A DNA stretch of 64,000 nucleotides from Rhynchopus sp. YZ270_cl-10. Lineage: Eukaryota. Positions within the stretch are counted from its first letter, which is position 1, and every line of letters begins with the position of its first letter. The stretch lies in contig OZ037845.1 of assembly GCA_964035575.1 (NCBI GenBank), positions 620,001 through 684,000 of the forward strand, read 5' to 3'. Of this stretch, positions 1,489 to 48,941 are shown piece after piece. A program made the translations under genes and the position numbers. Under the pieces are notes generated by a model. That model had not been told where the DNA came from and did not search any database. It saw only the letters and a list, made by a program, of their open reading frames with translations.

Positions 1489-2579
1489 CATACAATGCAA
1501 CGAGGCCGGGTACGCCTGAAAATACTCATGTCTGGAAAATATATCTGAGGCGTGCCTGAGGCGTCACTGAGGCGTGCCTGAGGCGTACTCGGGATTAGTT
1601 ACGTTTAAGTACGCCTCAGGCACGCCTGAGTATATATCAACGCATACTTGCGTTTCAGGCGCCTGGTGTGTATTTCCCCCCCGCAAAAAGGGCCTCTGAT
1701 GCATTTCCGGAGCGATCTGAAAAAATTCCGGGGTCGGACAATTTTTTTAGCAAAAAATGCGTGGCTTTAAGTTTGTACCAAAAATCAGGGGAAAATGAAA
1801 GTATACCCGGTTTCATATTTCTGCTAATATATAAAATTATTACGCACAGGTCATCACGTTTCTAAGTCATGCCATGTATTTCCTCCGCCCCCTGAAATGT
1901 GCTGAAATCAACTTTCGGTGTCCTGCTGAGAAAATTGCGGGGTCGCAAGATATTTTTAGTGGAAAAATATTATGGTTACTGCTTACAGTAAACTGCCTCC
2001 TAAAAAGAGGCTTCGCAGAAGATGAGTCATACCTCGGGTATGTATAAAAAAGTCCTTTGGTCACCCCATAGTTGTACTTAAAATAGAGCTGTGGTCTGTG
2101 GATCAAGGAGGCCTGTGTATAGTTTTGGGATCTCGATGGGATCTCTCTAGTGTTAGAGGATCCAGCCTTGTATGAGCCTCTTCCGTCTTGCATCAAGTTG
2201 GGCCCCGAAAAGCACCCCCGAGATTTGTTTCCAATAATTCTTGAACCAATGAAATACCCGAAGGTACCACCAAAATATATATCATCAGCACCAAAGCTTA
2301 GCGAACCCTTTTCATTTTTTCGACTCGCTCGGCCCAGAGGCACATTTTTCATCGTGCAACCCCGCATTTAAAAGATTTTGCTACCTCTGAATCAAAAACC
2401 ACAAAATTTGGGGGTAAATACATTTTTGTTCATGACCAAAATGCTGGTAAGAAATATAAATATACTCAGGCGTGCCTGAGGCGTACTTAAACGTAACTAA
2501 TCCCGAGTACGCCTCAGGCACGCCTGAGTATTTATTTTCAGGCCTTGGCGAGGCCGACTCGGCCTCGTTGCATTGTATG
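1489..2579. mobile_element. Non-autonomous DNA transposon, ~1.09 kb, 20-bp TIR, 6-bp TSD
   Basis: catacaatgcaacgaggccg / cggcctcgttgcattgtatg; TSD gaattt; empty site in unit 3 (~21610); subterminal ctgaggcgtgcctgag repeats. Confidence 0.85.
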
Positions 2580-4971
2580 GAATTTACTGTATTTTTTTTT
2601 TTATATTTTTTACTCAAAAAAGACGCCCATTGTTTACGCTAATAAATAAGAGAGACTAATTTTCCCTTTGGTTTAAAATGTTATGTTCGGATATTGCCTT
2701 TTGGTGTGGTTCTCTTTTTGTTTATTTGCTTCCTTTACGCACAATACCCTTCATTTCACACATAACACTTTTATACAGACCGATTCACACACTCCAAACT
2801 CCTTAACCACTTTTTTTCTATTTGTTATTTGCACCAGTCGCCCGAAGGCCTTTTTTTTTTGTTTTTGTAGTTTTTTTTTTTTCGCAAGATAAAGTGTGTA
2901 TCCTCCTGGAAGAGTAGAATGTCTTACAACACGGCACATAGATCACAAACCCATCCTCATGATCAGGCAGAGGTGAGATGGTCAGGAATCAGGCACTCAT
3001 TAAAAATAATGTTGCACCCACCCTTTTGCTGCGGGTCTGATTGCCCGATCAAAGAGGGCTGATACAAAGCAAGTGTACTACAAGCTAGCAAAAGAAAAGA
3101 AAAAATGAAATAAAGGTTGTTTGTTGTTCGCTTCCACACCACTTCTGCACTCAGATTCAAGTCTTTTGGCTGTCCTTACAAGCGCCTGCCAAAACGCTCG
3201 CCTCGTGGGTGTGGACTTTTTTTTTTCCTTCTTCGACTTGATTTACGATATGGTTGTGTTTGCCTGAAGTACAGAAAGTGTCGTGGAGCACAGGGGGGAA
3301 AAGAGGGGGAAAACAAGCGGGGAGCGGGATACACAGACGCGCGACTTTTCACGAGGGTCTCGAGCTTTTGTCAAATACTACGTGTTTACCAAGCATGTCC
3401 TTAAATCGGGGGAAAATCAGGGATTTTCTGGTTTTCAAATCGCAAAACTGGAGAAGACATTTTTTTTGCTGTTGTAGGGCCGCAGTGCGGGTGGTCACAT
3501 TTTTCTCTTCCCCCACCCCAGTGTCTTATCCAGGAATCCAGATTTCAAGGGGGTCAGCTTGTTTTGTTGCCCAATATTATTTCCAGCGCTGCTGGTCAGG
3601 GAAGACAGTGGGAACATTGGGAACTGTATAAAAAATGGCGCCGCAGGCGAAAAAAATTTAGGGCAGGGTGTAAAAATTTAGCTTTTTACACCACAGAGTC
3701 ACTCAACGAACCCTTTTTTGCGGAGCAAAAAAGGGAAAATCATGGATGTAGAAAGTACTTCACGTACTTTTTTTTGAAAAAAAAAAGTAAAAAAGTACGT
3801 GACAAAAAATAAAAAAAAAACGTACTTTTTTACCAGGCCTGGGCCTAAAGTGGGTGCCCGGGGCCCGATTTTGATTTTATTTTATTTTTTCTAAGGATTT
3901 TACACGGGGGAAAAATTATTTTTTCTAAGGATTTTATACGGGGAAAATTTATTTTTCTAAGGGTTTTTCTGAGGGGAACAAGTCTGTCATTGATGAAATT
4001 CACACCGGGAAGTGTTCTGTTGAAGTCGACGTGTACGGCGGGCTTGGCGACGGTCGTTGGGACAGGGAACCATCTATGTCCTGCATTCGTAGCTGCTCGT
4101 AGTATCTCTTGTACGGGCCCTGCAACGACTGAAACAAGAGCGACAGCGTTAGAAGAAACACCGCCACTCCGATAATTTTCCTGATGCTCACATGCTTCGC
4201 TGTGCGGGACACTCCTTTCCTCATGGTTTGGGTCACTTAGCCGAAATGGCCAAGTTCTTGGTTTTGGGCAAACCCCGCCCAAGCCCCCAACCCCAACCCC
4301 AAAAAAGGGATCTTTGAAATCCGGGTGAAATCGGGTGAAATTGGGCTCAGGTGGGCACAGGTGGGCTCTGGGGGGGCTATTGTGGGCTGGTCGCGGGACA
4401 CCACATCATATTCTGTGAAAATTCACTGAAATTTTGTTCATTTTTCCGTGTCCCCACCACAAGCCGGGATTGGCTCGGAAATGCAATAAAACTACCTATT
4501 GGGCGGAAAAAAACAACAGGAAACTTGCGCACTTTTTTTTGCCGTTCTTTTTCGAAAATTTTCAAACGCCCCAGAGTTAGGGTCGGGCCGAGTCGGCCGA
4601 CTTTCTGATTTTCCGAACAGTCGTCCCGACTATAAATATTTTTTCGCTATATTTTCCCTTCCGTCTGACTGTTCTTCCCGCTTCCGCTTCCCTGATTCCA
4701 TCCCCTTTGTCCTTTATGGTACTCGTCCCCTGTTTTTCTTTCTTCTTCAGCTTTTTCTTTTTCTTTTTCTTTTTCTCTTTTTCTTCCTCGTCTTCATCCG
4801 CCTTTTTTGCAGTACTACGGTAAGTGCAGACACATTTCCAAAAGAATGGGCGTTACTTTCTTTTTCATGAAGATAAGCGAAAACCCTGCTTGCCAGGTAC
4901 ATAAACACTGAATGCAGCTTGTCCAGCCTCACCTCACATTTTGCAAGACGGCTGGTTAGGCAGTTGGTCAT

Positions 4972-7610
4972 CTAACTGTGTTTACAGATTCTCCTGAGGA
5001 ATGGCACCCATCTTGTCGTCCTTGTTCTGGTCGGTGGCAACGGTGTGATCCACGTGCGGTTGGGAATATGTGGGACTCGAGACAGCAATGCAGGCCACAC
5101 AGGACGCGAAGCCAACACGCTTTCAGTTGATGTCTTGGGGTCATGATGTGCGTTGACCTGCGCTTCTGCTGCTTGTGTCTGCGCATTGTTCAGCCAAAAT
5201 TGTGCGAAGAAGTGGTAGTAATCCTCAAAATTTCCTGCGTGCACTACACCTATAACGCGATCCTTCAGATTGTCATCCTGCTTGCACAAAGTGACCCAGT
5301 CTTCCGGAAAGGTCGCAGTGGTGTGCCACAAGAACACATCAGTTTTGTCTGATGATTTTTCGACCTCTTCCCACATCTTCCCCATGGGGGCACCCTTCTC
5401 GTTCTCGCTGTGCTTTACCTGCAGCACCTCATTCACATCTTTGTCTAGTCGCAAAAAGATATCTCCGTAAGGTGCCTTCTCTGCGTTCTGGAATGCAGAG
5501 TCTGTGAACGGGGCACACTCATGGTGCGAGTTCTTCGGTGAAGATTTGCTCTGCATATTGTTATGAACATTTTGTTTTGAACCACGGGTCTGAGTCTGAC
5601 GCACTGCAAAACGGGGCGTGAGGGGGGTGTTCGTGAACTCGTGACGGCTAGGCTCATTCATCCACTGTACACCTTTGTGCAGGAGCACCATGCTCGTTGG
5701 TCCGGTGTCGTGCAGCTTAGAGAGGAGACACCTATACCACAGCACGAACGACTCGAAGGAAGCGCCGTCCTGCTTCTCCGCGAAGGTGTACCCCTTGAGC
5801 AGGCTTCCCGTCATCGAGGAGTTGACAATAGCCCAGATGAGTGAAAGCCTGAGATATAAATTTTCCCCCTCCTTTTGAATATCCATGAGGCCCTTGGATA
5901 GGTGTGCTGCGAGGTCGGTGTCTTGCTTCAGAGGCACCTTCAGCAGCGCATATCTGAGCAGCATCGTTTGATCCTCCACGCTGGCAACAATCCCGTTATA
6001 CCGAATCTTAACTTGTTCACACAGAATGCTGAGCAGCTCAGGTTCGTCCTTCTCAGGGTGCTCTTTGGCGACGTTACAGAGTATCTCAACCGCGCGTCCA
6101 TAACCTTTCACGATATCGAACAAATTTTTAGACGCACCCTTTGGCATGGTCTCGGGTTCTTTTGTGAGAAATGGGAGTTGCAAGTAGTGTGGGACCACGC
6201 TCGATCCCGCCAATGCATCCACCGCCGTCTTCCTTGCAGTCAGAGTGCATACGCTAAACAGGAAGAACGGAGATCCCATTTGACAGGACAGCATCACCTC
6301 TCGCAGGAAACTACGTATCCTACCGTTGCTCTCTGGGTCTGATACTAGCTCATTGTCCGACAAGTTGTGCACTCCGTCGATCATCAGCAGGCACACCACG
6401 TTAGTCGGGTACTGCTCTTCCTTTCCGAGATATTTGCACAGACGTTCTACAAGCTCGCTGAGAGTGAAGCCAGCTCTGTGGGCTTCGCTCCACACCACGA
6501 AGGCTTTCATATCGTCAGTCGTATGACCCAGCAGATGGAAACAAATCCGATCGACCACAGCAGACTCAGACGGTCTTTCGTGTTCCTTCTGGTACGAGGT
6601 CCCATTCTCGAAGGACACGTTGAAGGTGAATACCGTCTTGCCCTCCGTTTTATGCGCCAACACCTCTGGCACCCTCATGAGAGCACGAGACTTGCCCATG
6701 CCCAGACCTGCGCAGATGATTGCCTGTTCCATAGACTGCTTATCTCTTACTTTGGCATCAAATGCGGCATAGTTCTTCTCGAAGACGGCACACAACCCGA
6801 TGTCGAGATCACCACCATTTTGGTATGTCCACGTCATGCCAGAAGACTTCGCCAATGCGTGTGGCTGCTGCAGACGTTCAGCCATTCCCTGTGTTTTAAT
6901 AACCTCCTCCAGAGTGATTGCTCGCTTGCCTTGTTCGACCCGAATGTACCTGAGGTCCTCGCCAATAGTCGCCAGGCGCTGGCCAATAGTCACCAGGCGC
7001 TCGCAAACTCCCTGTTTGCGGGAGGGAAAAGGATGTACAAAACTACAAACAATAACATCAAAAACACAGTTTACACCACACTGTACATCTCCACTGCCGA
7101 CTTTGCAACCCCAACACAACATGTTGCGAATGGGCCATGCTAGAAAATAAAATACAAATGGTGTAAAAAGCAAGTAGACCACTCGTCATGCCTCCAAAAG
7201 TCCGAGGTTCCCTACGCCGCACAGACAGCACAACCACATGTAATGACCCACCTACTCAAAGGTTAAGTGAATAAAAACTACAAAAATAAGGGTCATACCT
7301 CCTTCTCCGTCTCGAGCTTGGGGATTCTGGCGCGTACATCGGCCTCGCTTGGTGGGACATCCACAAAATACTTCGCAGCAGCACCCAAGGCAGCGCGAGT
7401 AAACATTTTATGCTGAACACAACGGATCAAGAGATCAACGTGATCACTGAGCATCTTCTTCTCTGTCCGCAGCTCCTTCTTCTCTGTCTCCAGCTTCCTC
7501 ACAACGTCTTCCTTTTCTGCAACAGAGTCTTTTAGACCAGCCATGGAAGAGGTAGCCTGTTGTTCATGCAAGGGCAGGGGTACACTTCCGTCATCCACAC
7601 CAGGAGACAT
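4972..7610 (-). CDS. Crinkler/RHS-type protein copy 2: coiled coil + P-loop NTPase + PD-(D/E)xK REase-like domain, ~783 aa; exons 7610-7299 and 7011-4972
   Basis: Phase-0 GT..AG intron 7298-7012 joins ETEKE|GVCERL in frame; Walker A GLGMGKS, Walker B LLMIDG, nuclease-like motifs FESF..NAEKAPYGD..LQVK. Confidence 0.75.
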
Positions 7611-9737: not shown

Positions 9738-12700
9738 CTAACTGTGTTTACAGATTCTCCTGAGGAATGGCACCCATCTTGTCGTCCTTGTTCTGGTCGG
9801 TGGCAACGGTGTGATCCACGTGCGGTTGGGAATATGTGGGACTCGAGACAGCAATGCAGGCCACACAGGACGCGAAGCCAACACGCTTTCAGTTGATGTC
9901 TTGGGGTCATGATGTGCGTTGACCTGCGCTTCTGCTGCTTGTGTCTGCGCATTGTTCAGCCAAAATTGTGCGAAGAAGTGGTAGTAATCCTCAAAATTTC
10001 CTGCGTGCACTACACCTATAACGCGATCCTTCAGATTGTCATCCTGCTTGCACAAAGTGACCCAGTCTTCCGGAAAGGTCGCAGTGGTGTGCCACAAGAA
10101 CACATCAGTTTTGTCTGATGATTTTTCGACCTCTTCCCACATCTTCCCCATGGGGGCACCCTTCTCGTTCTCGCTGTGCTTTACCTGCAGCACCTCATTC
10201 ACATCTTTGTCTAGTCGCAAAAAGATATCTCCGTAAGGTGCCTTCTCTGCGTTCTGGAATGCAGAGTCTGTGAACGGGGCACACTCATGGTGCGAGTTCT
10301 TCGGTGAAGATTTGCTCTGCATATTGTTATGAACATTTTGTTTTGAACCACGGGTCTGAGTCTGACGCACTGCAAAACGGGGCGTGAGGGGGGTGTTCGT
10401 GAACTCGTGACGGCTAGGCTCATTCATCCACTGTACACCTTTGTGCAGGAGCACCATGCTCGTTGGTCCGGTGTCGTGCAGCTTAGAGAGGAGACACCTA
10501 TACCACAGCACGAACGACTCGAAGGAAGCGCCGTCCTGCTTCTCCGCGAAGGTGTACCCCTTGAGCAGGCTTCCCGTCATCGAGGAGTTGACAATAGCCC
10601 AGATGAGTGAAAGCCTGAGATATAAATTTTCCCCCTCCTTTTGAATATCCATGAGGCCCTTGGATAGGTGTGCTGCGAGGTCGGTGTCTTGCTTCAGAGG
10701 CACCTTCAGCAGCGCATATCTGAGCAGCATCGTTTGATCCTCCACGCTGGCAACAATCCCGTTATACCGAATCTTAACTTGTTCACACAGAATGCTGAGC
10801 AGCTCAGGTTCGTCCTTCTCAGGGTGCTCTTTGGCGACGTTACAGAGTATCTCAACCGCGCGTCCATAACCTTTCACGATATCGAACAAATTTTTAGACG
10901 CACCCTTTGGCATGGTCTCGGGTTCTTTTGTGAGAAATGGGAGTTGCAAGTAGTGTGGGACCACGCTCGATCCCGCCAATGCATCCACCGCCGTCTTCCT
11001 TGCAGTCAGAGTGCATACGCTAAACAGGAAGAACGGAGATCCCATTTGACAGGACAGCATCACCTCTCGCAGGAAACTACGTATCCTACCGTTGCTCTCT
11101 GGGTCTGATACTAGCTCATTGTCCGACAAGTTGTGCACTCCGTCGATCATCAGCAGGCACACCACGTTAGTCGGGTACTGCTCTTCCTTTCCGAGATATT
11201 TGCACAGACGTTCTACAAGCTCGCTGAGAGTGAAGCCAGCTCTGTGGGCTTCGCTCCACACCACGAAGGCTTTCATATCGTCAGTCGTATGACCCAGCAG
11301 ATGGAAACAAATCCGATCGACCACAGCAGACTCAGACGGTCTTTCGTGTTCCTTCTGGTACGAGGTCCCATTCTCGAAGGACACGTTGAAGGTGAATACC
11401 GTCTTGCCCTCCGTTTTATGCGCCAACACCTCTGGCACCCTCATGAGAGCACGAGACTTGCCCATGCCCAGACCTGCGCAGATGATTGCCTGTTCCATAG
11501 ACTGCTTATCTCTTACTTTGGCATCAAATGCGGCATAGTTCTTCTCGAAGACGGCACACAACCCGATGTCGAGATCACCACCATTTTGGTATGTCCACGT
11601 CATGCCAGAAGACTTCGCCAATGCGTGTGGCTGCTGCAGACGTTCAGCCATTCCCTGTGTTTTAATAACCTCCTCCAGAGTGATTGCTCGCTTGCCTTGT
11701 TCGACCCGAATGTACCTGAGGTCCTCCCTAATAGTCGCCAGCTCCTGGCCAATAGTCGCCAGGCGCTGGCCAATAGTCACCAGGCGCTCGCTAACTCCCT
11801 GTTTGCGGGAGGGAAAAGGATGTGCAAAACTACAAACAATAACATCAAAAACACAGTTTACACCACACTGTACATCTCCACTGCCGACTTTGCAACCCCA
11901 ACACAACATGTTGCGAATGGGCCATGCTAGAAAATAAAATACAAATGGTGTAAAAAGCAAGTAGACCACTCGTCATGCCTCCAAAAGTCCGAGGTACCCA
12001 ACGCCGCACAGACAGCACAACCACATGTAATGACCCACCTACTCAGAGGGTGAAAGACAGCGCGCCGCCACGTGGTACCCTTGGGGGGCGGCCCCCTCCG
12101 CCTTGGGGGGAGTCGCCTGCGAAAGCGCAAGTAGGGCTGTCGCCAGGGAGCAATTCTGGTGCTATGGGTGGAGGAGCAGGCGGGGTGGACGGGAAGGGGG
12201 TCGGGGAGAAGGAGGTATTGGCGGAGTACCTCAAGCAGTTTGAGCTGCGGATGAAGGACGCCGGGGGGGCCGGGGACTGCCAATTCAAGGCGGTCTCCAT
12301 GGCAATGCACGGGGACGCGACCGCGCACGTTGGGTTGAGGGCGATGTGTGTCGAGGAGCTGAGGAAGACCGCGGGGGTCTGGACGGCGTTCGTGCAGGGT
12401 AGCTACCAGAGCTACTGCACCGCCATGGCGAAGCAGGGCACCTGGGGTGATCACCTCACGCTGCAGGCGATGGCGGGCATACTGGGAAAAGACATACTGG
12501 TGTTCTCGGTACGCGACGAAAAAATCCGAGTACTGAAGCTGCAGACGGCAGGAAAGGGAGGGAGTGGGGCGGCATTATCGCTGGCATACCTCGGGGGGTG
12601 TCATTACGTGTGCATACACGCGAGCGACAAGGGGGAGGGGTTGTCGCTGGAGGAGCGGGCGCGCAAGGCGATGGCCGGCGGGGCTTTGGAGACGGAAGAT

Positions 12701-15700
12701 ACGGAGTGGCAGGTACCGCAGCCGAAGTGCGTAGCAGCAGGGGGCTTCTCTGAGGGTGGAGCGAAGAAGAAGGCAGCGGGGACGTTCGTTCTGTTGCGTT
12801 CGGCGTGGGTAGGGACGGAACTGGTGTCGTGGGGGGAGGTAAGAGAAGGGTCCGCAGGGGTCTGTCTCGTTCCGCCGGGTATGGAGGCAGAGGCGGAGCT
12901 GAAGATGTCGCGCAGCCCAGGTGTGACGTGGGTGGGGTTCGCCCTCTTCCCGAGGTCAGGAGGGGTGAAGCTGCAGCATTGCGCAATGGGTAGGCAAGGG
13001 AGCGGGGGGGCTTTTTTGGGGGCGACGAACACCACCGTATACGTAGTGGGTGATGCCAGGCCGAAGAAGGATGGAGGGGTGAAGCGTGCAGCGGCGGTTC
13101 CGCGGATGTCGACGCTGTACGTGGCGATGAGGAGCGAGCAGGACCTCGCGTCGTCTGGGCGGAGCATGCGTGCAGCAGTGGAGAAGTGGGGAGGGAGCCT
13201 ACGCAACAAACCGATTGTGCAGGGAAATCTGGTGCTGGCCACGGCAGACGTCCGGGAGGACAAGATGGACGCCGCGTTGAAGCAAAGCGGGATGGAAGGG
13301 GGGGTGTTCTGCAGGATGAAGTTGGAGGATTCGCAGCACCTGCCTGTACTGTGGATGGATGGGCTGGGCCTGGAGGAGGTACGCGACCTCGCAGGCCGGT
13401 TGGGTGGCTGGGGGGTGACGGTGCGCGACACCCAATATGGGTTCAGGGTGAAACGGGAAGACCAGGAGGGGGTGAGAAACGCTCTGGAGAAGGAGGGGAA
13501 GCAGCCGTACGTGACGGAAGAACGGTACGTGGTGACGGGATTCCGCCAAGGGACCTCCGCGCTGGCAGTGAAGGAGTCGCTGGCAGGCGCAGACTGGGAG
13601 GTGACGCCGGTGAGACTGTTGCTTGGGTGGAGGTGGGTGGTAGGAGCGAAGAAGCCGCCTCCCGTGTGGGCGATGCAGATGGAAGGAAGCGAGCAGGGCC
13701 TGCTCATCAGGAAAGATGAGCGGGCAAAGCAGAGACCGACGGCACGGGTGCACACGGCACAGGCAACCGGGCCGACGTATGGACCTCAAGGGACGCCGTC
13801 GACGACGACGCATGGCTGGCGCGCCTGGGGGGGTTGGGGAGCACCCGCATTCGCAGCCACGCCCACTTCACCGTCGCAACCGCAGGCGCAGGCGCAACCA
13901 CAACAGCATCAGCCAGCACGGCAGAATAGTACAACGGCAGCGTCGTCGAGCACAACACCTACGCCGTCGATCCCCACACCAGCAGCCACACCGCAGGACG
14001 CTTCCCACCACCAGAAATGGGAAGAGCTGGAACGCCGCATGGGCGAAAGGGTGGACCGCCTGGTGGGAGAGCGCCTGCAGTCGCTGTTGAAGGAGACGGT
14101 GTCGTCAGTGACGGAGATGACGGTGCAGATACGGAAGGAGCAGGCAGAGCAGAGGAAGGACCAGCAGGCCTTCATGGAGGGTGTCATGAGGCTGCTGACC
14201 AAAGCGGATACGACGCAACCAGCGTCGGACGCCGGTGTTGAACGGATGGAGGAGACGGTGCCCGCTAACCTGGCTGGCAAGAGAGACACCCGGAGTGGGT
14301 CTAGCGGCAGACAGAGCCCTCGCCGTAAGATGAAGATAGCGGAGCCGACACCCCCCGCCGCCTCTACCAATGTTGAGCAGCAGGGAACCGATAACGCCAC
14401 CAATGACGAGGTGAGGGTGGGTGAAGATCCCGTTCTGCCGGATGTTGTCTCCGAACAAGCAGATGAAGCGTCGGACGCCAGTGATGTGCAGATGGAGGAG
14501 ACGATGCCCGCTAACCTGGCTGGCAAGAGGGACACCCGGAGTGGGTCAAGCGGCATCCAGAGCCAAAGCCCGCGTCGCAGGAGGAAGGTAGAAGAGACGA
14601 CAGCCCCCGCCGCCTCTACCAATGTTGAGGAGCAGGCAGACGCCATCGGTGCTGACGTGGTGGGGATGGGTGAAGATGCCGTTCTGCCGGACTGTGTCTC
14701 CCCAATCAGCAATGAGGACGGAGACATGGCAAGTGCGAAGTCCTCCCCTGCACCCGTGCCGTTGTCACCCCCCTCCGATGCGATGGAGGCTGATGAGGTG
14801 GAGATCCCCCCTCCCGTCAGCATGGCAGGCAAGAGGGACACCCGCAGCGGATCCAGTGGGATTGCACAGCTGAGCCCTCGGCGCCGTGCGAGGATTGACC
14901 TGCCCGCGCCCCAGTCCCGGACCCGGTCGCAATCGCTCCCAGTGGAGTCAGAGTGGCTACAGGAAGGCGATCTGATGGTCTACTGCGTAGACCAAATGCG
15001 GTTTGATGTGGTGGTGGTGAAGATGACCGTCGAGGGTGTGGAGATCGCGTTTGGCCCTCTCCAAGGGCACCCAAACCGGACGGTATCGCGCAAATGCTTG
15101 TTTGGCAGGACGAAGTGACGGGATGGTGTGATGGTTGGCACAGGATTGGCTTCTTCGTGCGACGTTGGTGAAGGAGACGTTTTCTTCAAAACGGCCTCCC
15201 CAACAAGGGGTCAGCATCGCCCGCGTTCTACGGGCTGTATGCTGTTGGGGGTACTGGGTAAGGGTGGTGGTGTTAGACGAAAGGTACGGCGTGGGGAGCG
15301 ACGAGGGGTACGGCGCGGGGTGCGTCGAGGGGTACTACCAGGGACGTGTCGAAGGGTACGACGTGGGGCGTTCTTGGGTAGGGGGTCACTGCTGACATGT
15401 GGGGACGTAGAGGAGCATCCGGGTCCGTCGACCATGTCGCTTGGCACGGCAAACGTGACGTCTCTGAGGGCACACCCTGCGGTGGGGGAGTGGGATGTGG
15501 ATGTTTGTGCTCTGCAGGAGGTGCGGCTCACAGAAGAAGAGATGAAGGGGGCAGCAAACGACGTGAAGGGGTATGGTGCCAAGCAGCTTCTCTTTGGTGC
15601 CCCTTGCAGACGAAGCCAGGGATCAGACCCTCTGCGCACGCGCACGCAGAATGGTGGAGTTGCGATCATGACGTGCGCTGACATACCGACCAGAGCAGTA

Positions 15701-18700
15701 CCGCCACAATGTGCCCAACAAGCGTGGAACGAATGCCGCTTTACGCATGCGCAGGTGGCATATGGGAGCGGGGGACGCAACATCTCTGTGTTCTCGTTTT
15801 ATGGTGTGTGTGCTGACAGCGACCGCACGGAGCAACTCCTGACAGACATCTTTGAAGAAGCAGCCAGCCTTGGGGACATACCGGTGTTCATTGCCGGAGA
15901 CTTCAACGTAGAGGCTAACGAAAGTCTGGCCATTCGAGCGGCCATCTCCTCCGGCAAATGGGTTGATGCGGCAGATACCTACGCACAGCAGTTGGGTAAG
16001 GCAGCAGAGAACACATGCTACACCTCCACATCGTCTGGCAGACGTATCGACTTGGTGCTGGCGAACCACGTGGCTGCCCCTGCGATCTCCAAAGTGGTGG
16101 TCTGGAAAGAGAGCTGCCTCCCGGTACACAGACCGGTGGTGTTGACGTTAGACCTGACGCGATACGAGCAGAAGGCACCGCAGGCACGCCCTCCCCTTTC
16201 TTTGATCGGCGACGACTGGACGAAATGGCCGGCGAAGAAGGAGAAGGAGCTTGCAGCGAAGGTGATGCAGGAGAACGCTGCCCCTGAAGCCGACCTGACG
16301 AAGATGTCGGTTGAAGATCGCTGGGCACGCTTCTGCAAGATTGCGGAGGACTACCTGCTGAAGAGAGGTGCTGCAGACTCAGACCCGAAGCAACAACGCC
16401 ACAGGGGGAGAGGGGAGGTGCAACCCGACGTTCTCCGACATCGGACGGCCCGCATGGACTGCGACACGCCGGATGCTGTGAACCTGGAGACGGCTCAACT
16501 GCAGAAGACATGTCGTCAGATGGAGCAGCTCATTGGTGATCGGAGGAAGCGCTTCGGTCAGCCATCTGCAGAATCGTTGAACGAACGGCAGCTGTGGGCG
16601 AAAATCCGCAAGAAGAAGCATCTCCTGAAGAGTGACACCTGGGACCTCGACCTTCCTGGGATAGAGGAGTTGTGTGGGCTCCTTGGCTGCCTGAAGAAGA
16701 GGGGTTTTGTCCTGCTGGAGCAACGGCGACGGGCCCGCATCAAGGAATGGCGCCGCACTATGAAGGAACACATGAAGGAGAACCCAGCGAAGGTGTTCTC
16801 GTTCCTGCGGAAGGCTACGTCGTCACACACCACGTTCCTGAAACGGGAGGACGGCACGGTTACAGCTAACCTCCAGGAGATGGATGAACTGCTCATGGAT
16901 GACCGTGCTTGGGGTGGGGTGTTCCGGATGTATGACGATTCCGAAGAACCTGCGTGGACGACGTTCTTTGATAGGTTCAAGGAACACATTCCTGAAGGGA
17001 CCCCTTGTGTATGCGAACCCCTGACCGCCGACGACCTCCGTACGACCATCGGCAAGATGAAGCGGAAAAAGGCGGCAGGCCTCGATGGGTGGAGGGTGGA
17101 GGAGCTGAAGGAACTGCCTTTGACACTGCTGGAGGAACTCGCGCGCTGCCTGAACCTGATCGAGGATACTGGGAACTGGCCCAGGGTGATTGCGAGGGCG
17201 TTGGTGGTGCTCATCCCCAAAGGAGAAGGCGAGGAGCCCCTGAAGCAGCGACCCATAACCATCACCAGTGTGATGTACAGGTTATGGGCGGCGACTCGAC
17301 TCCGCAAAGTGGCGACGTGGCAGGAATCCTGGATTCACGAGCGGCAACACGGCTTCCGGAACAAACACGGAACCGAAGACCTGCTGTGGTTTCTCTGTGC
17401 GAAGATGGAGGAGGCTCTGATAGACGACACACCTATCTATCTAGCCTCCTTCGACTATCAGAAGTGCTTTGACCGTGTTCCCCAAGAGATCATGTTCCAG
17501 CTCGTCGAACGGTTGGGTCTTCCCGACAACATGATGCGCCCCATCCGGGGTATATACAAGAAGCTGGGGAGGCGTTTCAAACTGCCGGCAGGTCTTGGCA
17601 AAGAATGGTTTGCGACGAATGGTATCCTCCAAGGATGCCCACTGAGCGTAATCTTCCTGAATGCGCTGGTGGCGGTGTGGATGAACGGGGTGGAGAAGGA
17701 AACGGGCACGCAGGGGCTGGCGTACGCTGACGACACCAACCTCCTGACGAAGACCCTCGACCAGCTGCGAGCGGGTGTCGCCTTCACCGGACACTTTGCA
17801 GACTTGACGGGACAACGCGTCCACGCGGGGAAAAGCACGTGGCAGAGCAACCGTCCTGATGAAGAGGAAACTGTGCAGATGAACGGCGCGGATCTTACTC
17901 GCGTCGAGAAGTCGGAGTGCCTGGGGGCGACGGTGCAGGCACGACAGGCTGGGACGCCCACGCTCCCGACGAAACTGGAAGGCACCATCGACGCATGCGG
18001 ACCGCTAGCAGGTAAGGTGGGATGCCTCCCGCTGACTCAAGGTGAGAAAGCAGGCATCATGCAGGCTGCAGTGATGTCGAAATCTGTGTACGGTATCACG
18101 GTGCAGGACCCACCTGGGAAATACGTGAACAGTCTTGCAACTGCAGTGGAGAAAGGGGTCCACGGCGTGAACAAGATGAATCGGCGAAGCGTACCGGTCA
18201 TGCTGAATGTCTTCGAGAAAGGCCATCTGCTCGACCCCTCGGTGGCATTCGACTACAGAAGGATCATGACGTGGGCGGCGATGATACGCAAATCGGATGA
18301 GATCTGTTCGCTGGTCGAAAAGTGCAGGTTACGTGCGAAAGCGAAGCAGGCGAAGACTGGAGGACCCATCGGGTTGATTGCGCGAGCCCTCAGCCGCCTT
18401 GCGTGGTCGTGGATAGACACGACAAAGGTGAAAACGCACGATGGGAGCATCGTTGATGTGAAGACGGTAAGCTTGGGTAGACTGGGCCACGTTGTGCGAG
18501 AACGGATGTTCTTCATTCGACTCTCCCGTACGAAGACGACTGCGAAGGTCAATGGCAAAGGCAGAGCTAACCTGAAGGGTATTGAAGCGGGGGTGGATAA
18601 GGAGAAAACCCTTGCTCTCACCCGAAGCAAAACTTTGACGGATTACGAGGCGGGGACGCTGCGACACATTGTAGCTGACGGTGCGATAACGGGGGTGCGA

Positions 18701-20618
18701 CTTGCGAGAGCGCGCATACGGGACTCGGCCATCTGCGTTCACTGCGAAGCGGGGGTGGACGAAAATCACAAACACTTGTGGTGGGAATGTGAAGCATGGA
18801 GTAGCATTCGTGCGGAGTACCCCTTGCTGTTGGACATTGACAGAACGACCTGGCCAAACTGTCTCGCTATCTGCGGCATGTGCACACCGGACACACCTTT
18901 GGAATGCGCCCGTGTTGCAGACCTGCAGAAGATGATGGTGCGCATCCTCATCGCACGCTCCAAGTGGAGCAGACCGGAAGCGGCGAACCCGCGACTGCAA
19001 GAAGACCGATACCCGTGGACGTGGGCACCGGAGTTGGACACGACGACGCAACACGCGAACAGTTTGGTGGACTACACCCCCCTGAAAAGGAGGTGGCCGT
19101 ATGGACGTGCTCTGCTGCTGGCGTTTGCCTCCTGGCTGGGTGGTTTACAATGGAGCGACGAAGCTGGACGTGAAGTCTCCCACATGGAGCTGCTCATCGA
19201 CTTCGAGGTTGCCACAGGGATGGACATCCGACCTGGGGACAAGACCGGCAGAATAGCGCCGAAGCTGAAGCAGCCGAGGGCTGGGACTGGGGAAGAAGAC
19301 AACAATGGGGGGGAAGACGACGGGAGTGGGGAAGACGACGATGATGACGACGTGGTGCCAGTAGCGCTGGCCCACAGAGAAATGGCGAAGACGACCACCT
19401 TTGGGCATATGTTGGCTTCACTCAGAACCTTTTCGGAGAGCTCTCTCCATCCGGGGAAGGTGAAGGTAACGCATGTTCTCGCTTCGTTTGGGGCGAACGC
19501 CATCACAGGCATCGACCGCCGTCCTATCTTTGCCGGCGGAGAAGAAACGTTGAAGGCATTGCGTGCGCTATACGATGCTGGTGTGGCGTACCGTCTGCAA
19601 CGCAGCTCCGAAGGCATGTCTGAGGTGGAGCTCCGTGGTGGCGATAGAGCGAGAGGTACATGGATGGGGGAGTATTCTGCTGAGACGGCGTACCCCTCCA
19701 CAGAACTTAGAGGCAGGAGGGCACTACCATTCATCCAGCGGGCTGAACAGGAGACATCTGCGCATGCTCGCTACCGGCACCATGAGCACGTGCGTCCAGG
19801 GGATGCACCCGTGAAGGCACCTGAAGGAGCGGTTCCGATCTTCCAGTTTGCGATATGTGTGCTGCACCGGAAGACGAAGTGTGATGCCTGCTCGAAGAAC
19901 GCCCAGGCAGACCTGATGCATTGCTGCTTTGCGCACCACTCCAACGACGACGGGTTACCGATCCGACACGAATCATGCACTAAGCATAGACTCTCGAGGT
20001 GCGGGAACTGTGTGCAAGAGAAGAGTACGCTGGAGCACTGCTGCCGCCGTCACCACGACACCTCGAAGGGGCGACAGACGACGCTGGGAGGCTTCTTCAA
20101 GAAGAAGCAGACGAAGCAGAAGGATGGGCACAGCAGGGGCGGTGATGGACTTATGTAACATCACCTCCACGATGTATTGTATCACCTATCTCGGATAGGG
20201 GTGCATGCATCGAAAACGGGCCCCCACCGTTGACCCACCTACTCAAAGGTTAAGTGAATAAAAACAACAAAAATAAGGGTCATACCTCCTTCTCCGTCTC
20301 GAGCTTGCGGATTCTGGCGAGTACATCGGCCTCGCTTGGTGGGACAACCACAAAATACTTCGCAGCAGTACCCAAGGCATCGCGAGTAAACGTTTTATGC
20401 CGAACACAACGGATCAAGAGATCAACGTGATCACTGAGCATCTCCTCCTTTGTCTGCAACTTCTCCTCCTTTGTGTACAACTCCTTCTTCACTGTCTCCA
20501 GCTTCCTCACAACGTCTTCCTTTTCTGCAACAGAGTCTTTTAGACCAGCCATGGAAGAAGCAGCCTGTTGTTCATTCAAGGGCAGGGGTACACTTCCGTC
20601 ATCCACACCAGGAGACAT
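9738..20618 (-). CDS. Crinkler/RHS-type protein copy 3; exons 20618-20286 and 11798-9738; intron expanded by an 8.2-kb retrotransposon
   Basis: Exon 2 nearly identical to copy 2 plus one 21-nt heptad; donor (20285) and acceptor (11799) intact. Confidence 0.7.
12046..12141 (+). ncRNA. HDV-like self-cleaving ribozyme at the retrotransposon 5' end
   Basis: P1 GAGGGU/ACCCUU with G1-U wobble; P3 GCC/GGU; L3 GCCACGU; P1.1 CC/GG; P4 GGCGGC/GUCGCC; J4/2 GCGAA (catalytic C12120); P2 GCGC/GCGC. Confidence 0.75.
12164..15118 (+). CDS. Retrotransposon ORF1: OTU cysteine protease, central domain, coiled coil, 3x AGKRDTRSGSSG repeats, C-terminal Tudor-like domain
   Basis: First ATG inside the element at 12164; OTU motifs GDCQF..WGDHLTL..HY; C-terminus WLQEGDLMVY..FDVVVVKMTVEGVEIAF..TVSRKCL. 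Confidence 0.85.
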   Translation: MGGGAGGVDGKGVGEKEVLAEYLKQFELRMKDAGGAGDCQFKAVSMAMHGDATAHVGLRAMCVEELRKTAGVWTAFVQGSYQSYCTAMAKQGTWGDHLTLQAMAGILGKDILVFSVRDEKIRVLKLQTAGKGGSGAALSLAYLGGCHYVCIHASDKGEGLSLEERARKAMAGGALETEDTEWQVPQPKCVAAGGFSEGGAKKKAAGTFVLLRSAWVGTELVSWGEVREGSAGVCLVPPGMEAEAELKMSRSPGVTWVGFALFPRSGGVKLQHCAMGRQGSGGAFLGATNTTVYVVGDARPKKDGGVKRAAAVPRMSTLYVAMRSEQDLASSGRSMRAAVEKWGGSLRNKPIVQGNLVLATADVREDKMDAALKQSGMEGGVFCRMKLEDSQHLPVLWMDGLGLEEVRDLAGRLGGWGVTVRDTQYGFRVKREDQEGVRNALEKEGKQPYVTEERYVVTGFRQGTSALAVKESLAGADWEVTPVRLLLGWRWVVGAKKPPPVWAMQMEGSEQGLLIRKDERAKQRPTARVHTAQATGPTYGPQGTPSTTTHGWRAWGGWGAPAFAATPTSPSQPQAQAQPQQHQPARQNSTTAASSSTTPTPSIPTPAATPQDASHHQKWEELERRMGERVDRLVGERLQSLLKETVSSVTEMTVQIRKEQAEQRKDQQAFMEGVMRLLTKADTTQPASDAGVERMEETVPANLAGKRDTRSGSSGRQSPRRKMKIAEPTPPAASTNVEQQGTDNATNDEVRVGEDPVLPDVVSEQADEASDASDVQMEETMPANLAGKRDTRSGSSGIQSQSPRRRRKVEETTAPAASTNVEEQADAIGADVVGMGEDAVLPDCVSPISNEDGDMASAKSSPAPVPLSPPSDAMEADEVEIPPPVSMAGKRDTRSGSSGIAQLSPRRRARIDLPAPQSRTRSQSLPVESEWLQEGDLMVYCVDQMRFDVVVVKMTVEGVEIAFGPLQGHPNRTVSRKCLFGRTK
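15119..20158 (+). CDS. Retrotransposon ORF2: Arg-rich linker, 2A-like peptide, APE endonuclease, reverse transcriptase, CCHC knuckle, Cys/His repeats, PIP box
   Basis: NVTSL/LQEV/GDFN/RID APE motifs; GILQGCPLS and YADD (17723) RT motifs; CVHC..H...EC at 18734-18790; same frame as ORF1. Confidence 0.95.
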   Translation, partial: RDGVMVGTGLASSCDVGEGDVFFKTASPTRGQHRPRSTGCMLLGVLGKGGGVRRKVRRGERRGVRRGVRRGVLPGTCRRVRRGAFLGRGSLLTCGDVEEHPGPSTMSLGTANVTSLRAHPAVGEWDVDVCALQEVRLTEEEMKGAANDVKGYGAKQLLFGAPCRRSQGSDPLRTRTQNGGVAIMTCADIPTRAVPPQCAQQAWNECRFTHAQVAYGSGGRNISVFSFYGVCADSDRTEQLLTDIFEEAASLGDIPVFIAGDFNVEANESLAIRAAISSGKWVDAADTYAQQLGKAAENTCYTSTSSGRRIDLVLANHVAAPAISKVVVWKESCLPVHRPVVLTLDLTRYEQKAPQARPPLSLIGDDWTKWPAKKEKELAAKVMQENAAPEADLTKMSVEDRWARFCKIAEDYLLKRGAADSDPKQQRHRGRGEVQPDVLRHRTARMDCDTPDAVNLETAQLQKTCRQMEQLIGDRRKRFGQPSAESLNERQLWAKIRKKKHLLKSDTWDLDLPGIEELCGLLGCLKKRGFVLLEQRRRARIKEWRRTMKEHMKENPAKVFSFLRKATSSHTTFLKREDGTVTANLQEMDELLMDDRAWGGVFRMYDDSEEPAWTTFFDRFKEHIPEGTPCVCEPLTADDLRTTIGKMKRKKAAGLDGWRVEELKELPLTLLEELARCLNLIEDTGNWPRVIARALVVLIPKGEGEEPLKQRPITITSVMYRLWAATRLRKVATWQESWIHERQHGFRNKHGTEDLLWFLCAKMEEALIDDTPIYLASFDYQKCFDRVPQEIMFQLVERLGLPDNMMRPIRGIYKKLGRRFKLPAGLGKEWFATNGILQGCPLSVIFLNALVAVWMNGVEKETGTQGLAYADDTNLLTKTLDQLRAGVAFTGHFADLTGQRVHAGKSTWQSNRPDEEETVQMNGADLTRVEKSECLGATVQARQAGTPTLPTKLEGTIDACGPLAGKVGCLPLTQGEKAGIMQAAVMSKSVYGITVQDPPGKYVNSLATAVEKGVHGVNKMNRRSVPVMLNVFEKGHLLDPSVAFDYRRIMTWAAMIRKSDEICSLVEKCRLRAKAKQAKTGGPIGLIARALSRLAWSWIDTTKVKTHDGSIVDVKTVSLGRLGHVVRERMFFIRLSRTKTTAKVNGKGRANLKGIEAGVDKEKTLALTRSKTLTDYEAGTLRHIVADGAITGVRLARARIRDSAICVHCEAGVDENHKHLWWECEAWSSIRAEYPLLLDIDRTTWPNCLAICGMCTPDTPLECARVADLQKMMVRILIARSKWSRPEAANPRLQEDRYPWTWAPELDTTTQHANSLVDYTPLKRRWPYGRALLLAFASWLGGLQWSDEAGREVSHMELLIDFEVATGMDIRPGDKTGRIAPKLKQPRAGTGEEDNNGGEDDGSGEDDDDDDVVPVALAHREMAKTTTFGHMLASLRTFSESSLHPGKVKVTHVLASFGANAITGIDRRPIFAGGEETLKALRALYDAGVAYRLQRSSEGMSEVELRGGDRARGTWMGEYSAETAYPSTELRGRRALPFIQRAEQETSAHARYRHHEHVRPGDAPVKAPEGAVPIFQFAICVLHRKTKCDACSKNAQADLMHCCFAHHSNDDGLPIRHESCTKHRLSRCGNCVQEKSTLEHCCRRHHDTSKGRQTTLGGFFKKKQTKQKDGHSRGGDGLM
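15377..15427 (+). other. 2A-like ribosomal StopGo peptide GRGSLLTCGDVEEHPGP
   Basis: Matches Thosea asigna virus T2A (GRGSLLTCGDVEENPGP) except N>H; lies immediately before the APE domain. Confidence 0.85.
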
Positions 20619-32240: not shown

Positions 32241-33599
32241 TTATTCCACCCTTTGTTTCTTTGTTGGAGGTGATCCATCGTCACCGCGTTCTGTTGTCGC
32301 TTCTGTGACGTATTGTGCGGTGAGGCCAATTTCGGTTTTGTTGCGTTCTGCGGAGAAAGTGTCGGTGATTGACCAGAAGGACCGGGGGTGTGCATTTTCC
32401 ATGATGCTTCCGCTGAGAAGATACCCACCGGTGGCACTCATGTTCACTGCGGGGTGGGTTCTGTCGGGGAGAACCTGGTAGGGGCGGAACCAGGTTTCAG
32501 AGAGCTGTACGTTGACTGCAATGCTTTGCCCGCGGAGTGTCTTTGAAATCTCCAAGAGAGGCTCGATATAGCGGGAGTACACACAGAACGTGCAGGAGCC
32601 CCCCATGAGGGGGAGGATCTGGAAGAACGATTCACGCGGGTCGTGCTGGCTTGCAATAACCACGCTGTCCACTCCGTGGGTATACCGCATTTCGTGAACC
32701 GCCTTCTTTGTGCAAAGGTGGGTACGGTAGTCACGCACCTGGGTTGCTTCGACGTCGTCCGATTCTGTAAACGGGGTGGTTGGTGCTTCCTTCAACTCTG
32801 TCGCAAAATCGCGTTGATAATCAAAATTGACCAACGAAGTCGCCGCCTTTTCGTTCAAAGACAGCCAATCATACACCATCGAAGTGTGAACACCCTTTCC
32901 AAGAGTACCAATGAGGTTGTACACACGGCCAAGACCTCCTTGGCGAAGAACGGTTGCGGCTGAAAGGAGTCCGGTCAGACCGTCAATGACAATAGTATTG
33001 TTTCCTGCACCGACGTTTGCGAGGGTAAGAATTTGCGATAGAGTGTCGGAACGGATGTGCATGATTTTCTCGGGTTTCTTGAGAAGGTATGTCTCAATGA
33101 TGCTGTCTAAGGTGGGCCGGCGGAGACGCATGGAAAAGTCGTATTTCTTGGACTTCTTTTTGATGTATTTTTCCTGCGAAAACTTCGACTTCGCAGAAAA
33201 GGTCTTAGAGTTGGCAATAAGGTCCTCAACAATCTCGAGGCCCTTTCCCCCGTCTCTCTTCTCATGAAGCTCGTCTTTGGTTAAAGTTTGTGCGGAGTTT
33301 TTGTCAAGGAGGTTGCGGTTGTCGGAGCCAGCTTCGGTACCTTCGCGGACGACACGTCCAACCAGTTCCTTTTGTGCTTCACCTCCCTGAACCTTCTTGC
33401 AGAAAATTTTCCTGTCAGAGTCAAATCCAATTGGCTCGTTCCACCGCAGGCCAACAACACTGCCCAGATCAACGCCCTTCTGTGGACCGTTCTTTATTCC
33501 CTTGAAGATCTCGCCCTTCGCAATGCGGACAATGCTGATGCGGTCGTCCATCATGAACACAACAGCCCAGTCACCTTCCTGGATGGTTCCGGAGGCCAT
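32241..33599 (-). CDS. TRM6: tRNA m1A58 methyltransferase non-catalytic subunit (Gcd10/TRM6)
   Basis: DNRNLLD, LIANSKTF..KSKFSQEKYIKKK, RSDTLSQIL, YQVLPDRTHP..GGYLL motifs. Confidence 0.92.
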   Translation of the reverse strand: MASGTIQEGDWAVVFMMDDRISIVRIAKGEIFKGIKNGPQKGVDLGSVVGLRWNEPIGFDSDRKIFCKKVQGGEAQKELVGRVVREGTEAGSDNRNLLDKNSAQTLTKDELHEKRDGGKGLEIVEDLIANSKTFSAKSKFSQEKYIKKKSKKYDFSMRLRRPTLDSIIETYLLKKPEKIMHIRSDTLSQILTLANVGAGNNTIVIDGLTGLLSAATVLRQGGLGRVYNLIGTLGKGVHTSMVYDWLSLNEKAATSLVNFDYQRDFATELKEAPTTPFTESDDVEATQVRDYRTHLCTKKAVHEMRYTHGVDSVVIASQHDPRESFFQILPLMGGSCTFCVYSRYIEPLLEISKTLRGQSIAVNVQLSETWFRPYQVLPDRTHPAVNMSATGGYLLSGSIMENAHPRSFWSITDTFSAERNKTEIGLTAQYVTEATTERGDDGSPPTKKQRVE

Positions 33600-34434
33600 G
33601 CTTTATTTCTTTGTATTTCTGGAGTATTTTTGATAGTGGGAGGGGCAAATGAAAACAGCTTTTTAAAAAGTGGGGATATGGGGATGTAAAGGGTTGTTCC
33701 CCTTTTGCTGGAACCAAAAGAAAGTTGAAATACAAAGCCCTCTCGTGAACAGAGTACCTTGGCTTGGTACAATGACCGGGTGTACCGGGGGGTGGACACC
33801 CAACCATGCAGTCCTACTAATCCATTTCGTGGTTTACATCTGATATGTGCTTCTCCCGCTTTCACTCATCAGTCAGATGAACGGGGATCATTGCAAACAT
33901 AGGGAGAACAGTTTGTAAGATTCGCCTTGTGATTAGTTACATTGATTTTGTATTCGCTGTAAGAAAAAGAAGAGAGTTGCCAAAGGGGAAGGTGGGAGGA
34001 ATTTTTCGGGTAAATCGCTTCGTGGGGGAGGGAGGTTTTTAAAAAAGTACATCCGATTTTGTTGTGTCAAAGTGTTATTTTTTCATTGCAATATAAAAAA
34101 GGGCTAGCTGTCATTTTTGGCCGCAACGTTGAACACAAAAAAAAGAAGAAGTTAAAAGTGCAAATACTTCACCTCGTCGGATGCATGCGCTGGAAAAAAA
34201 AGAACGTTTATAACGTATAGTTATGGTATGAGGCAAAACGCACCTGATGGGGATAGTTACCACTCTGTGCAAATTCCTCTCTCCAACACATCTCTACTCA
34301 CTTTTTTTTTAAATCCTCAAAATCGCTCCTTTTTCTCTCAAAAGTTAGAATTGGTTATTTTTACGTTATTTTTTGTTTTTTGTCCCCACCCTCCACCCTC
34401 CAGACCACCCCCTTTTTTCCAACAATCCCCTCCA

Positions 34435-48318: not shown

Positions 48319-48941
48319 TGGAGCAAGGTATGTGTTTGTATCAAAAGAGTATCTGTGGGGTGACGTGGCTGAGGTGCTGGGAGGAATATCAGAGTGATAC
48401 ATCATGTGTGAAGCGTGGCGAAACAGAAGTGTAGAGGGAAGGTGTTGTGACCCCGTTGCATTAAGCTTCAGATGCATTCTGTCATGCAAGCTGCAGTGGT
48501 GTGTTGCATCGTGGTGTGAGGCGATGTGATGTGGTTGATGTCTAGTGAGGGAAATTCTTGTACAGAATATGGCCCTTTGATGTGATGTGGCGTGGTGTGT
48601 GGATGTGCACAGGTTGTGGACTCAGCTAGGGTTAAAGTTGTTGTACTGCTGCACTGGGGGAAATGGGTGAATGAATTGTGTGTTCGTTTGAATATAATAC
48701 AGATGCACAAGACAGTGTCCTGCAGCTGTGGATAGAAAGCCGCTTGACAGACTGTTTTGGTACATCTCTGCATTTACATGAAGCAAACATTCATGTGCAC
48801 ATGAACAAAAGAAGAAGGACAAGAGAGCTGCCAACACGCGCAGTGCACATGTATCAGCCAAAGTGTTTCTTGAAAAGTAAAGCAATAAAAGCAATAAAAG
48901 GTTAGGGTTGCCTGAAGCAGGTCAGACAGAACAGACGTGCC

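Follow-up and report, generated by a model that had tools for sequence, protein, structure and literature searches.

A LINE of Rhynchopus sp. YZ270_cl-10 with a conserved in-frame UGA and a 2A-like motif between ORF1 and ORF2: predicted readthrough coupled to StopGo

The 64,000-nucleotide stretch analyzed here (assembly GCA_964035575.1, contig OZ037845.1, positions 620,001 to 684,000 of the forward strand; hereafter the window) from Rhynchopus sp. YZ270_cl-10 contains a full-length long interspersed nuclear element (LINE) whose two open reading frames (ORFs), ORF1 and ORF2, lie in one frame with a single TGA at 15116-15118 as their sole separator. Judged from the copies and relatives compared below, this stop is a trait of the element family and not a nonsense mutation private to one copy, and it is followed by an open leader that carries a conserved 2A-like motif ahead of the endonuclease domain. 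We consider it probable, with modest confidence, that the UGA is read through at a low level and that ORF2p is then released by StopGo. Most ribosomes would stop at UGA-CGG and release ORF1p, a minority would read through the UGA into the ORF2 frame, and the 2A-like motif would skip one peptide bond, so that the endonuclease-reverse transcriptase comes off on its own. In this way a low ORF2p:ORF1p ratio would be set by readthrough without any start codon for ORF2, and the fusion made by readthrough would be reversed by StopGo. The 2A-like motif was overlooked in the first-pass annotation; with it, the predicted product changes from an ORF1-ORF2 fusion to two proteins.

The in-frame stop and its conservation

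The junction codons read AAG TGA CGG GAT GGT GTG ATG (feature coordinates are collected in Table 1). From stop to stop, the ORF1 frame spans 11954-15118 (1054 codons), and the ORF2 frame continues uninterrupted over 15119-20158 (1679 codons) to a TAA at 20156-20158. The shared frame, split by TGA-CGG and open to 20158, is thus exactly as the first-pass annotation described it, and its comparison of UGA-CGG with the leaky-stop context of alphaviruses agrees with the published alphavirus/tobravirus consensus (PMC3159437; this and the other papers cited here were available in part, and statements about them extend to those parts). Reassignment of TGA to sense was considered and ruled out, since the two ORFs hold no in-frame TGA against 54 TGG and since TGA serves as a host stop, closing six of 14 long minus-strand host ORFs. 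In Paramecium, UGA is the only stop codon. Retention of UGA is informative in the YZ270_cl-10 LINE because all three stop codons are in use in this DNA.

Five related clusters of ORF1 proteins (P0038-P0042; 10 members, 43-100% identical) stop at the same alignment column as ORF1. They comprise P0038 with three members, P0039 at 82-90% identity and P0040-P0042 with six members at 43-51%; a sixth match, P0043, is shorter and is not aligned at the ORF1 end. Four of 11 listed sequencing runs (X4, X6, X7 and X9) were also examined. Run X4, which may share its strain or sample with the window, provided a 577-nt contig that crosses the stop without a single difference; its depth of 599 comes without a single-copy baseline and so gives no copy number. 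Three 151-nt pieces, none across the stop, came from X7, and X9 yielded nothing.

Run X6 belongs to a different study and contains a sister subfamily. Over 15421-15650 its contig has two differences in 230 bases; divergence is plain in the leader, and before 15137 the contig cannot be aligned. Here an Arg codon is followed by TGA-CGG in frame, with a stop-to-15137 spacer two codons longer than in the window, as read from a 30-letter loose end, taken as adjoining 15137, of one contig with a depth of 4.1. Arg is also the C-terminal residue of P0040-P0042. The X6 leader has a net deletion of 39 nt, so that the reading frame is kept; deletion and spacer gain are both multiples of three. ATG 15131 is replaced by GTG in X6, and ATG 15239 is unchanged. 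An independent protein, P0044, has a leader of the same type, and the gene caller starts it at codon +5. Looking for TGA-CGG in other copies, as the first-pass annotation had proposed, therefore found it kept in frame in X6 and unchanged in X4, and together with the common ORF1 end column this refutes the idea that the TGA is a nonsense mutation private to this copy.

The leader, its 2A-like motif and the downstream folds

The 2A-like motif begins 85 codons past the stop and ends eight codons short of the endonuclease motif, with the predicted skip between Gly 15422-15424 and Pro 15425-15427. We take leader codons 86-103 to resemble T2A. The core GD(V/I)ExNPGP is not matched, His standing in place of Asn, and the same core is canonical in two distant relatives, L006 and L018. 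All five X6 changes in leader codons 82-97 are synonymous, and L006 differs from L018 in the 2A region by four synonymous changes and two that are not. These comparisons indicate coding constraint on the 2A region, which lies upstream of Met106; translation would accordingly most likely come to the endonuclease from a point upstream of this Met. Ahead of the endonuclease, related motifs stand in P0002, L006, L018, L015 and L007. Among 150 relatives, many of them N-terminally incomplete, 46 match a loose [NH]PG[PK] pattern. 2A peptides at this site are active in several LINE clades, most such elements being without ORF1 (PMC3708506).

Three further features of the region were recorded. The leader contains an Arg/Gly 12-nt repeat at 15276-15335. 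A divergent G-E-A-x-[NH]-P-G-[PK] motif, often following hydrophobic leader segments, takes the place of the classical 2A core in L007, L008, L012 and many of P0044-P0190, and its 2A function is putative. Across window positions 15390-15650 the summed contig depth of X4 climbs from 599 to 1700-7300 near the 2A, and X6 is nearly identical from there; this may hint at different ORF1-leader modules joined to one ORF2 at the 2A, or at 5'-truncated copies starting there.

The two hairpins drawn in the first-pass annotation form as drawn when 15137-15205, hand-picked bounds, is folded by itself (-23.4 kcal/mol, z -2.0, this stability being reached by 7 of 200 shuffles). Folds that begin at the stop are unremarkable (z 0.22 for 15116-15235 and -0.02 for 15119-15210). 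In wider context an alternative stem (pair 15170-15187, probability 0.91-0.99) displaces hairpin 2, and the probability of hairpin 1 drops from 0.9 to 0.02 as context grows. Helices nearer the stop, seen in some folds, are located in the spacer that differs in X6. The X6 copy leaves hairpin 1 intact and the fold of hairpin 2 largely so; its base changes fall on two of 46 paired against five of 23 unpaired positions (Fisher P 0.037, from one comparison only), and by inspection they disrupt five base pairs of the alternative stem; this comparison favors the hairpins as drawn. A stem some 20 nt past the stop exists in L006 and L018 as well. Long-range stems of 7-9 bp near the stop turned up in all five loci tested and, having no control set, are not used here. 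The proposed hairpins thus stand as a plausible structure that does no better than chance on single-sequence energy. A stimulatory role for them would fit readthrough; the downstream structure does not decide the mechanism, because reinitiation of the SART1 type also fits it.

Distant relatives and competing explanations

A metagenome scan confirmed 15 loci out of 96 pattern matches (an initial scan had confirmed 0 of 123), and six of them extend upstream of the endonuclease; L009-L011, L013, L014, L016, L017, L019 and L020 end short of the upstream region and are omitted from the junction count. In four of the six a coding-like upstream frame is closed by one in-frame TGA. These four (L006 and L018, which form one family, L007 and L008) represent three families with ORF2 identities of 33-40%, and in each the TGA is followed by a leader open in frame with stops in both other frames, then by a 2A-like motif and the endonuclease. 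The upstream frame of L008 has earlier stops as well. The first in-frame Met comes at codon 124 in L006 and codon 104 in L018, with the endonuclease motif already at codon 48, and in L007 it lies at codon 78, past the NPGP motif. No similarity to the YZ270_cl-10 ORF1 was detectable in the upstream frames of L007, L008, L015 and L018, where the label ORF1 rests on position, codon usage and composition.

One protein, P0106, known as protein only, carries an ORF1 homologue (28%, E 3e-14) and the endonuclease on a single uninterrupted chain that lacks both the stop and the 2A, and a continuous ORF1-endonuclease frame thus appears to occur in the clade; a weak search for fused proteins longer than 1722 aa that carry ORF1 found none beside this shorter fusion. 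In a quick reverse transcriptase (RT) tree of 51 rows, made from the relatives found here and no reference clades, the in-frame lineages fall on deep branches apart from one another, deep support being weak, and no clustering of the in-frame label is seen (500 of 500 shuffles as low). Four scans of viral contigs produced one locus, unrelated, and four weak endonuclease-family matches in prokaryote genomes were discarded as unrelated.

We favor readthrough because the UGA and the frame are kept while the AUG is not, and because some relatives have no AUG before the endonuclease; combined with StopGo, it would also account for a 2A kept in an ORF1-bearing element. The first-pass proposal that programmed readthrough sets the ORF1:ORF2 ratio is therefore upheld in part, by the recurrent in-frame UGA and the AUG-less relatives, and is weakened by the stem spacing, the RTG at +5 and the lack of covariation.

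Several observations weigh against readthrough with StopGo. At the junction, the stems begin 19 nt past the stop (25 in X6) compared with 7-12 nt in known viral cases, and the +5 codon, an ATG in the window copy and a GTG in X6, has G at both -3 and +4. The stem comparison that the first-pass annotation had called for found hairpin 1 unchanged and no compensatory pairs in X6; two of 23 pairs are broken, one being rescued by a register shift, and 133 of 1000 random 7-base mutants equal the X6-type fold. The N-to-H change reduces 2A activity in L1Tc and FMDV, the virus of foot-and-mouth disease (PMC3708506), and in a yeast reporter no readthrough was obtained from the UGA-plus-pseudoknot junction of Tca2 (PMC2194720). 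Among the relatives, CGG follows the stop only in the YZ270_cl-10 family, the four in-frame loci having TGC, TGT, CAA and CTG. GTG occurs at +4 and +6 in L006/L018 and at +7 in L007; in L008 there is a CTG at +1, and codon 51 is ATG. The remaining two of the six loci, L012 and L015, carry ORF1 in another frame, so the clade can do without readthrough. ORF2 is frameshifted in L006, L007 and L018, a TGA lies inside the RT region of L011, and the single-copy stops of L007 and L008 could reflect decay of fused ORFs. Leader codon usage in L018 and L007 does not pick out frame 0. Finally, three of five lineages, leaving aside the YZ270_cl-10 family, being in frame gives P 0.21 for frame alone; requiring TGA as well gives P 0.02-0.06, shared ancestry being ignored in both.

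The main rival, possible if rather unlikely in our view, is termination followed by reinitiation, in which ribosomes would terminate at the UGA and resume 12 nt further along, at codon +5 (AUG, or near-cognate GUG in the sister subfamily), with the aid of the downstream hairpins, and the 2A would trim a short leader peptide from ORF2p. The first-pass annotation named ATG 15131 as the alternative start. An RTG in strong context, with G at -3 and +4, occupies this codon in both subfamilies, although the AUG itself is not kept in X6, which nevertheless keeps TGA-CGG. Near-cognate codons lie close to every stop, reinitiation in SART1 requires downstream structure (PMC3708506, PMC5972666), initiation of L1 ORF2 is described as AUG-independent (PMC5009743), and published 2As lie 40-80 aa from the ORF2 N-terminus (PMC3708506). 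L015, with its ORF2 out of frame and an ATG 26 nt past a TAG, looks like a reinitiating relative. Reinitiation, however, demands neither a shared frame nor a UGA, yet four lineages have both, and L006, L018 and L007 have no AUG ahead of the 2A-like motif.

We regard as improbable a separate ORF2 RNA translated from ATG 15239 and made by spliced-leader (SL) trans-splicing at an AG near 15206 or from an internal promoter. The nearest named relatives of the LINE come from Diplonema papillatum (proteins with 46% and 35% identity), whose mRNAs are essentially all SL-bearing (PMC10161547), and would fit a diplonemid-like host. Within 15000-15440 no AG is preceded by a more pyrimidine-rich stretch of 25 nt than the one at 15206 (64%). 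ATG 15239 is moreover kept in X6, and the Tca2 junction contains a minor promoter (PMC2194720). This ATG nonetheless has a poor context (T at -3, C at +4), no such ATG exists in L006, L018 and L007, and a separate RNA leaves the retention of TGA-CGG and of the frame unexplained; it would presumably also part ORF2p from the full-length RNA due for copying. Least credible by far is a TGA that arose by nonsense mutation in a once-fused ORF1-ORF2, private or passively carried: the fused relative P0106 and a TGA of decay type in L011 lend it something, and it is contradicted by ORF1 proteins down to 43% identity that share the end point, by TGA-CGG in X6 and X4, and by an ORF2 intact over 1679 codons within a perfect target duplication.

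Extending readthrough with StopGo beyond this family, we tentatively propose, as an idea that may well prove wrong, a widespread protist LINE clade in which two recoding events would follow each other on a single RNA: programmed UGA readthrough would dose ORF2p, and 2A StopGo would free it from ORF1p. The stop, hairpin and 2A would together act as a portable joint for swapping different ORF1 modules onto the same ORF2, and single lineages would have gone over to complete fusion or to reinitiation out of frame.

The element, its surroundings and known systems

Table 1. Features of the LINE and its flanks (window coordinates; X4 and X6 are sequencing runs)
Feature	Position	Strand	Basis or remark
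Target-site duplication, 5' copy	12031..12045	+	15 bp, identical to 20231-20245
LINE	12046..20230	+	antisense insertion near 5' end of one tandem host gene unit
ORF1	12164..15118	+	984 aa counted from first ATG within the LINE
OTU-like cysteine protease domain in ORF1	12266..12595	+	Pfam PF02338, E 5e-12
In-frame stop TGA + CGG, predicted readthrough site	15116..15121	+	sequence; kept in X6 and X4 contigs
Open in-frame leader	15119..15433	+	105 codons, stop to Met106; 0 stops in frame against 3 and 4 in the two others
ATG at codon +5, candidate reinitiation codon	15131..15133	+	G at -3 and +4; GTG in sister subfamily
Hairpin 1	15138..15160	+	8 bp; no X6 changes in 15137-15168
Hairpin 2	15164..15204	+	3 of 4 loop bases differ in X6, fold largely kept
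2A-like StopGo motif	15374..15427	+	leader codons 86-103, ends D-V-E-E-H-P-G-P
APE-type endonuclease domain	15479..16105	+	Pfam PF03372, E 2e-10
Reverse transcriptase domain (YADD)	17213..17863	+	Pfam PF00078, E 2.5e-19
Cys/His zinc-knuckle-like motif	18734..18790	+	by eye in translation; no Pfam match
Target-site duplication, 3' copy	20231..20245	+	perfect match to 5' copy

The element is a non-LTR (long terminal repeat) retrotransposon of the APE type, about 8.2 kb long, and its full extent was established by self-comparison against empty sites: the 15-bp target sequence is single at the empty tandem host units near 98 and 7244. Self-comparison of the LINE revealed no long terminal repeats, and no poly(A) or simple-repeat tail, a usual though not universal LINE trait, lies between the ORF2 stop and the 3' duplication. 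Rfam returned no match over 11700-20500 at E<=1; Pr77, the promoter/ribozyme of Ingi/L1Tc, was not compared directly.

ORF1 consists of the OTU domain, a central globular part, coiled-coil-like and repeat regions, and a small C-terminal beta domain that reaches the stop. The structure model of this last domain is four-stranded (predicted local distance difference test, pLDDT, 66) and had no match in a fold search; the middle region reached a top score of 0.78 against the ESM Atlas, which we treat as a lead only. An internal duplication of about 240 bp (81% identity) occupies 14221-14701 and is accompanied by a third, partial copy of an A-G-K-R-D-T-R-S-G motif. The OTU domain opens ORF1 here, and in P0005, P0009, P0010, P0059 and P0104 it lies in the same chain as the endonuclease and upstream of it. 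P0040-P0042 and P0003 are joined to similar ubiquitin-like host N-termini (PF00240, a weak match in P0040), suggesting that a single host gene family was the target of insertion more than once. In ORF2, L1 ORF2p is among the best solved-structure matches of the RT (E about 1e-14). Weak zf-RVT matches occur in the relatives L008 and P0002, and two Cys/His-rich repeats at the ORF2 C-terminus (19850-20065) have no Pfam match. An RNase H domain is present in L008, and Pfam found none in ORF2 of the YZ270_cl-10 LINE.

Window positions 1-21600 form a tandem array with a unit of about 4.8 kb, each unit carrying a minus-strand ORF of 716-723 aa that has a P-loop-like motif by eye and no Pfam match. 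In one unit the LINE is inserted about 120 bp upstream of the first ATG; two further units contain no LINE. Farther along are a Gcd10p-family gene (PF04189) at 32241-33602 on the minus strand and, also on the minus strand at 46027-48621, a host ORF in which pacifastin-inhibitor-like repeats occur 13 times (PF05375, E 2e-64), something that would not be expected of a protist host.

How ORF2p is produced from bicistronic LINE RNA has been described as still unclear (PMC3708506), and the worked-out cases, SART1 and L1, use reinitiation (PMC5972666, PMC5009743). At the YZ270_cl-10 junction some 320 nt would suffice for a direct test of readthrough against reinitiation, and natural variants supply the controls: AUG or GUG at +5, and AUG-less, out-of-frame and fused relatives. 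If readthrough with StopGo is true, the 2A of LINEs gains a clear job where ORF1 is kept, that of splitting ORF2p off the readthrough fusion. SART1 and mammalian L1 resemble the present element in their bicistronic RNA and low ORF2 output, and SART1 also in its downstream structure; they differ in that termination-reinitiation operates over an overlapping UAAUG or a 63-nt spacer and not at one in-frame leaky stop (PMC5972666, PMC5009743).

Signals of the alphavirus, tobravirus, furovirus and coltivirus type share with the junction a UGA-CGG before a polymerase ORF, 3' stem-loop potential and conserved 3' sequence; their spacers measure 7-12 nt and their stems covary, unlike the 19-25 nt and the absence of visible covariation here (Firth et al. 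2011, PMC3159437). Candida albicans Tca2 likewise has structural and pol ORFs split by one UGA, with 3' structure and pol made from full-length RNA. It is, however, an LTR element, and its junction alone gave no readthrough in S. cerevisiae, a warning for the YZ270_cl-10 LINE (PMC2194720). As to the 2A, L1Tc/Ingi, CR1, L2, Rex1 and Crack also have a 2A-like motif directly before the APE domain, and 20% of L1Tc copies carry the N-to-H variant. These 2A-bearing LINEs are mostly without ORF1, whereas here a 984-aa OTU-bearing ORF1 and an in-frame stop lie upstream of the 2A (Odon et al. 2013, PMC3708506). Ingi/L1Tc in particular have a single ORF, unlike the YZ270_cl-10 LINE with its ORF1, and Ingi has an RNase H (PMC12278014). 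An upstream leaky stop goes unmentioned in the available parts of two preprints from 2026 on eukaryotic and retroelement 2As (PMC13405545, 10.64898/2026.09.24.754024).

The closest precedent is Group 3 of the Paramecium tetraurelia non-LTR elements, compared here by description: these are APE-RT LINEs with ORF1 and ORF2 in one frame and an in-frame stop between them, for which readthrough was inferred from consensus sequences (Guerin et al. 2017, PMC5405496). They are described as forming a ciliate-specific clade of small elements (one at 3.8 kb), and 2A, OTU and hairpin go unmentioned in the accessible text of that paper; the in-frame stop is the only common feature. The first-pass remark that readthrough is unusual for non-LTR elements thus holds, with the qualification that an inferred precedent is in print. 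A literature search that covered few subscription papers found no measured LINE readthrough and no LINE that pairs readthrough with 2A. What is already known, then, is an in-frame ORF1 stop with inferred readthrough, and what appears to be new is the predicted coupling of readthrough to a 2A in a LINE.

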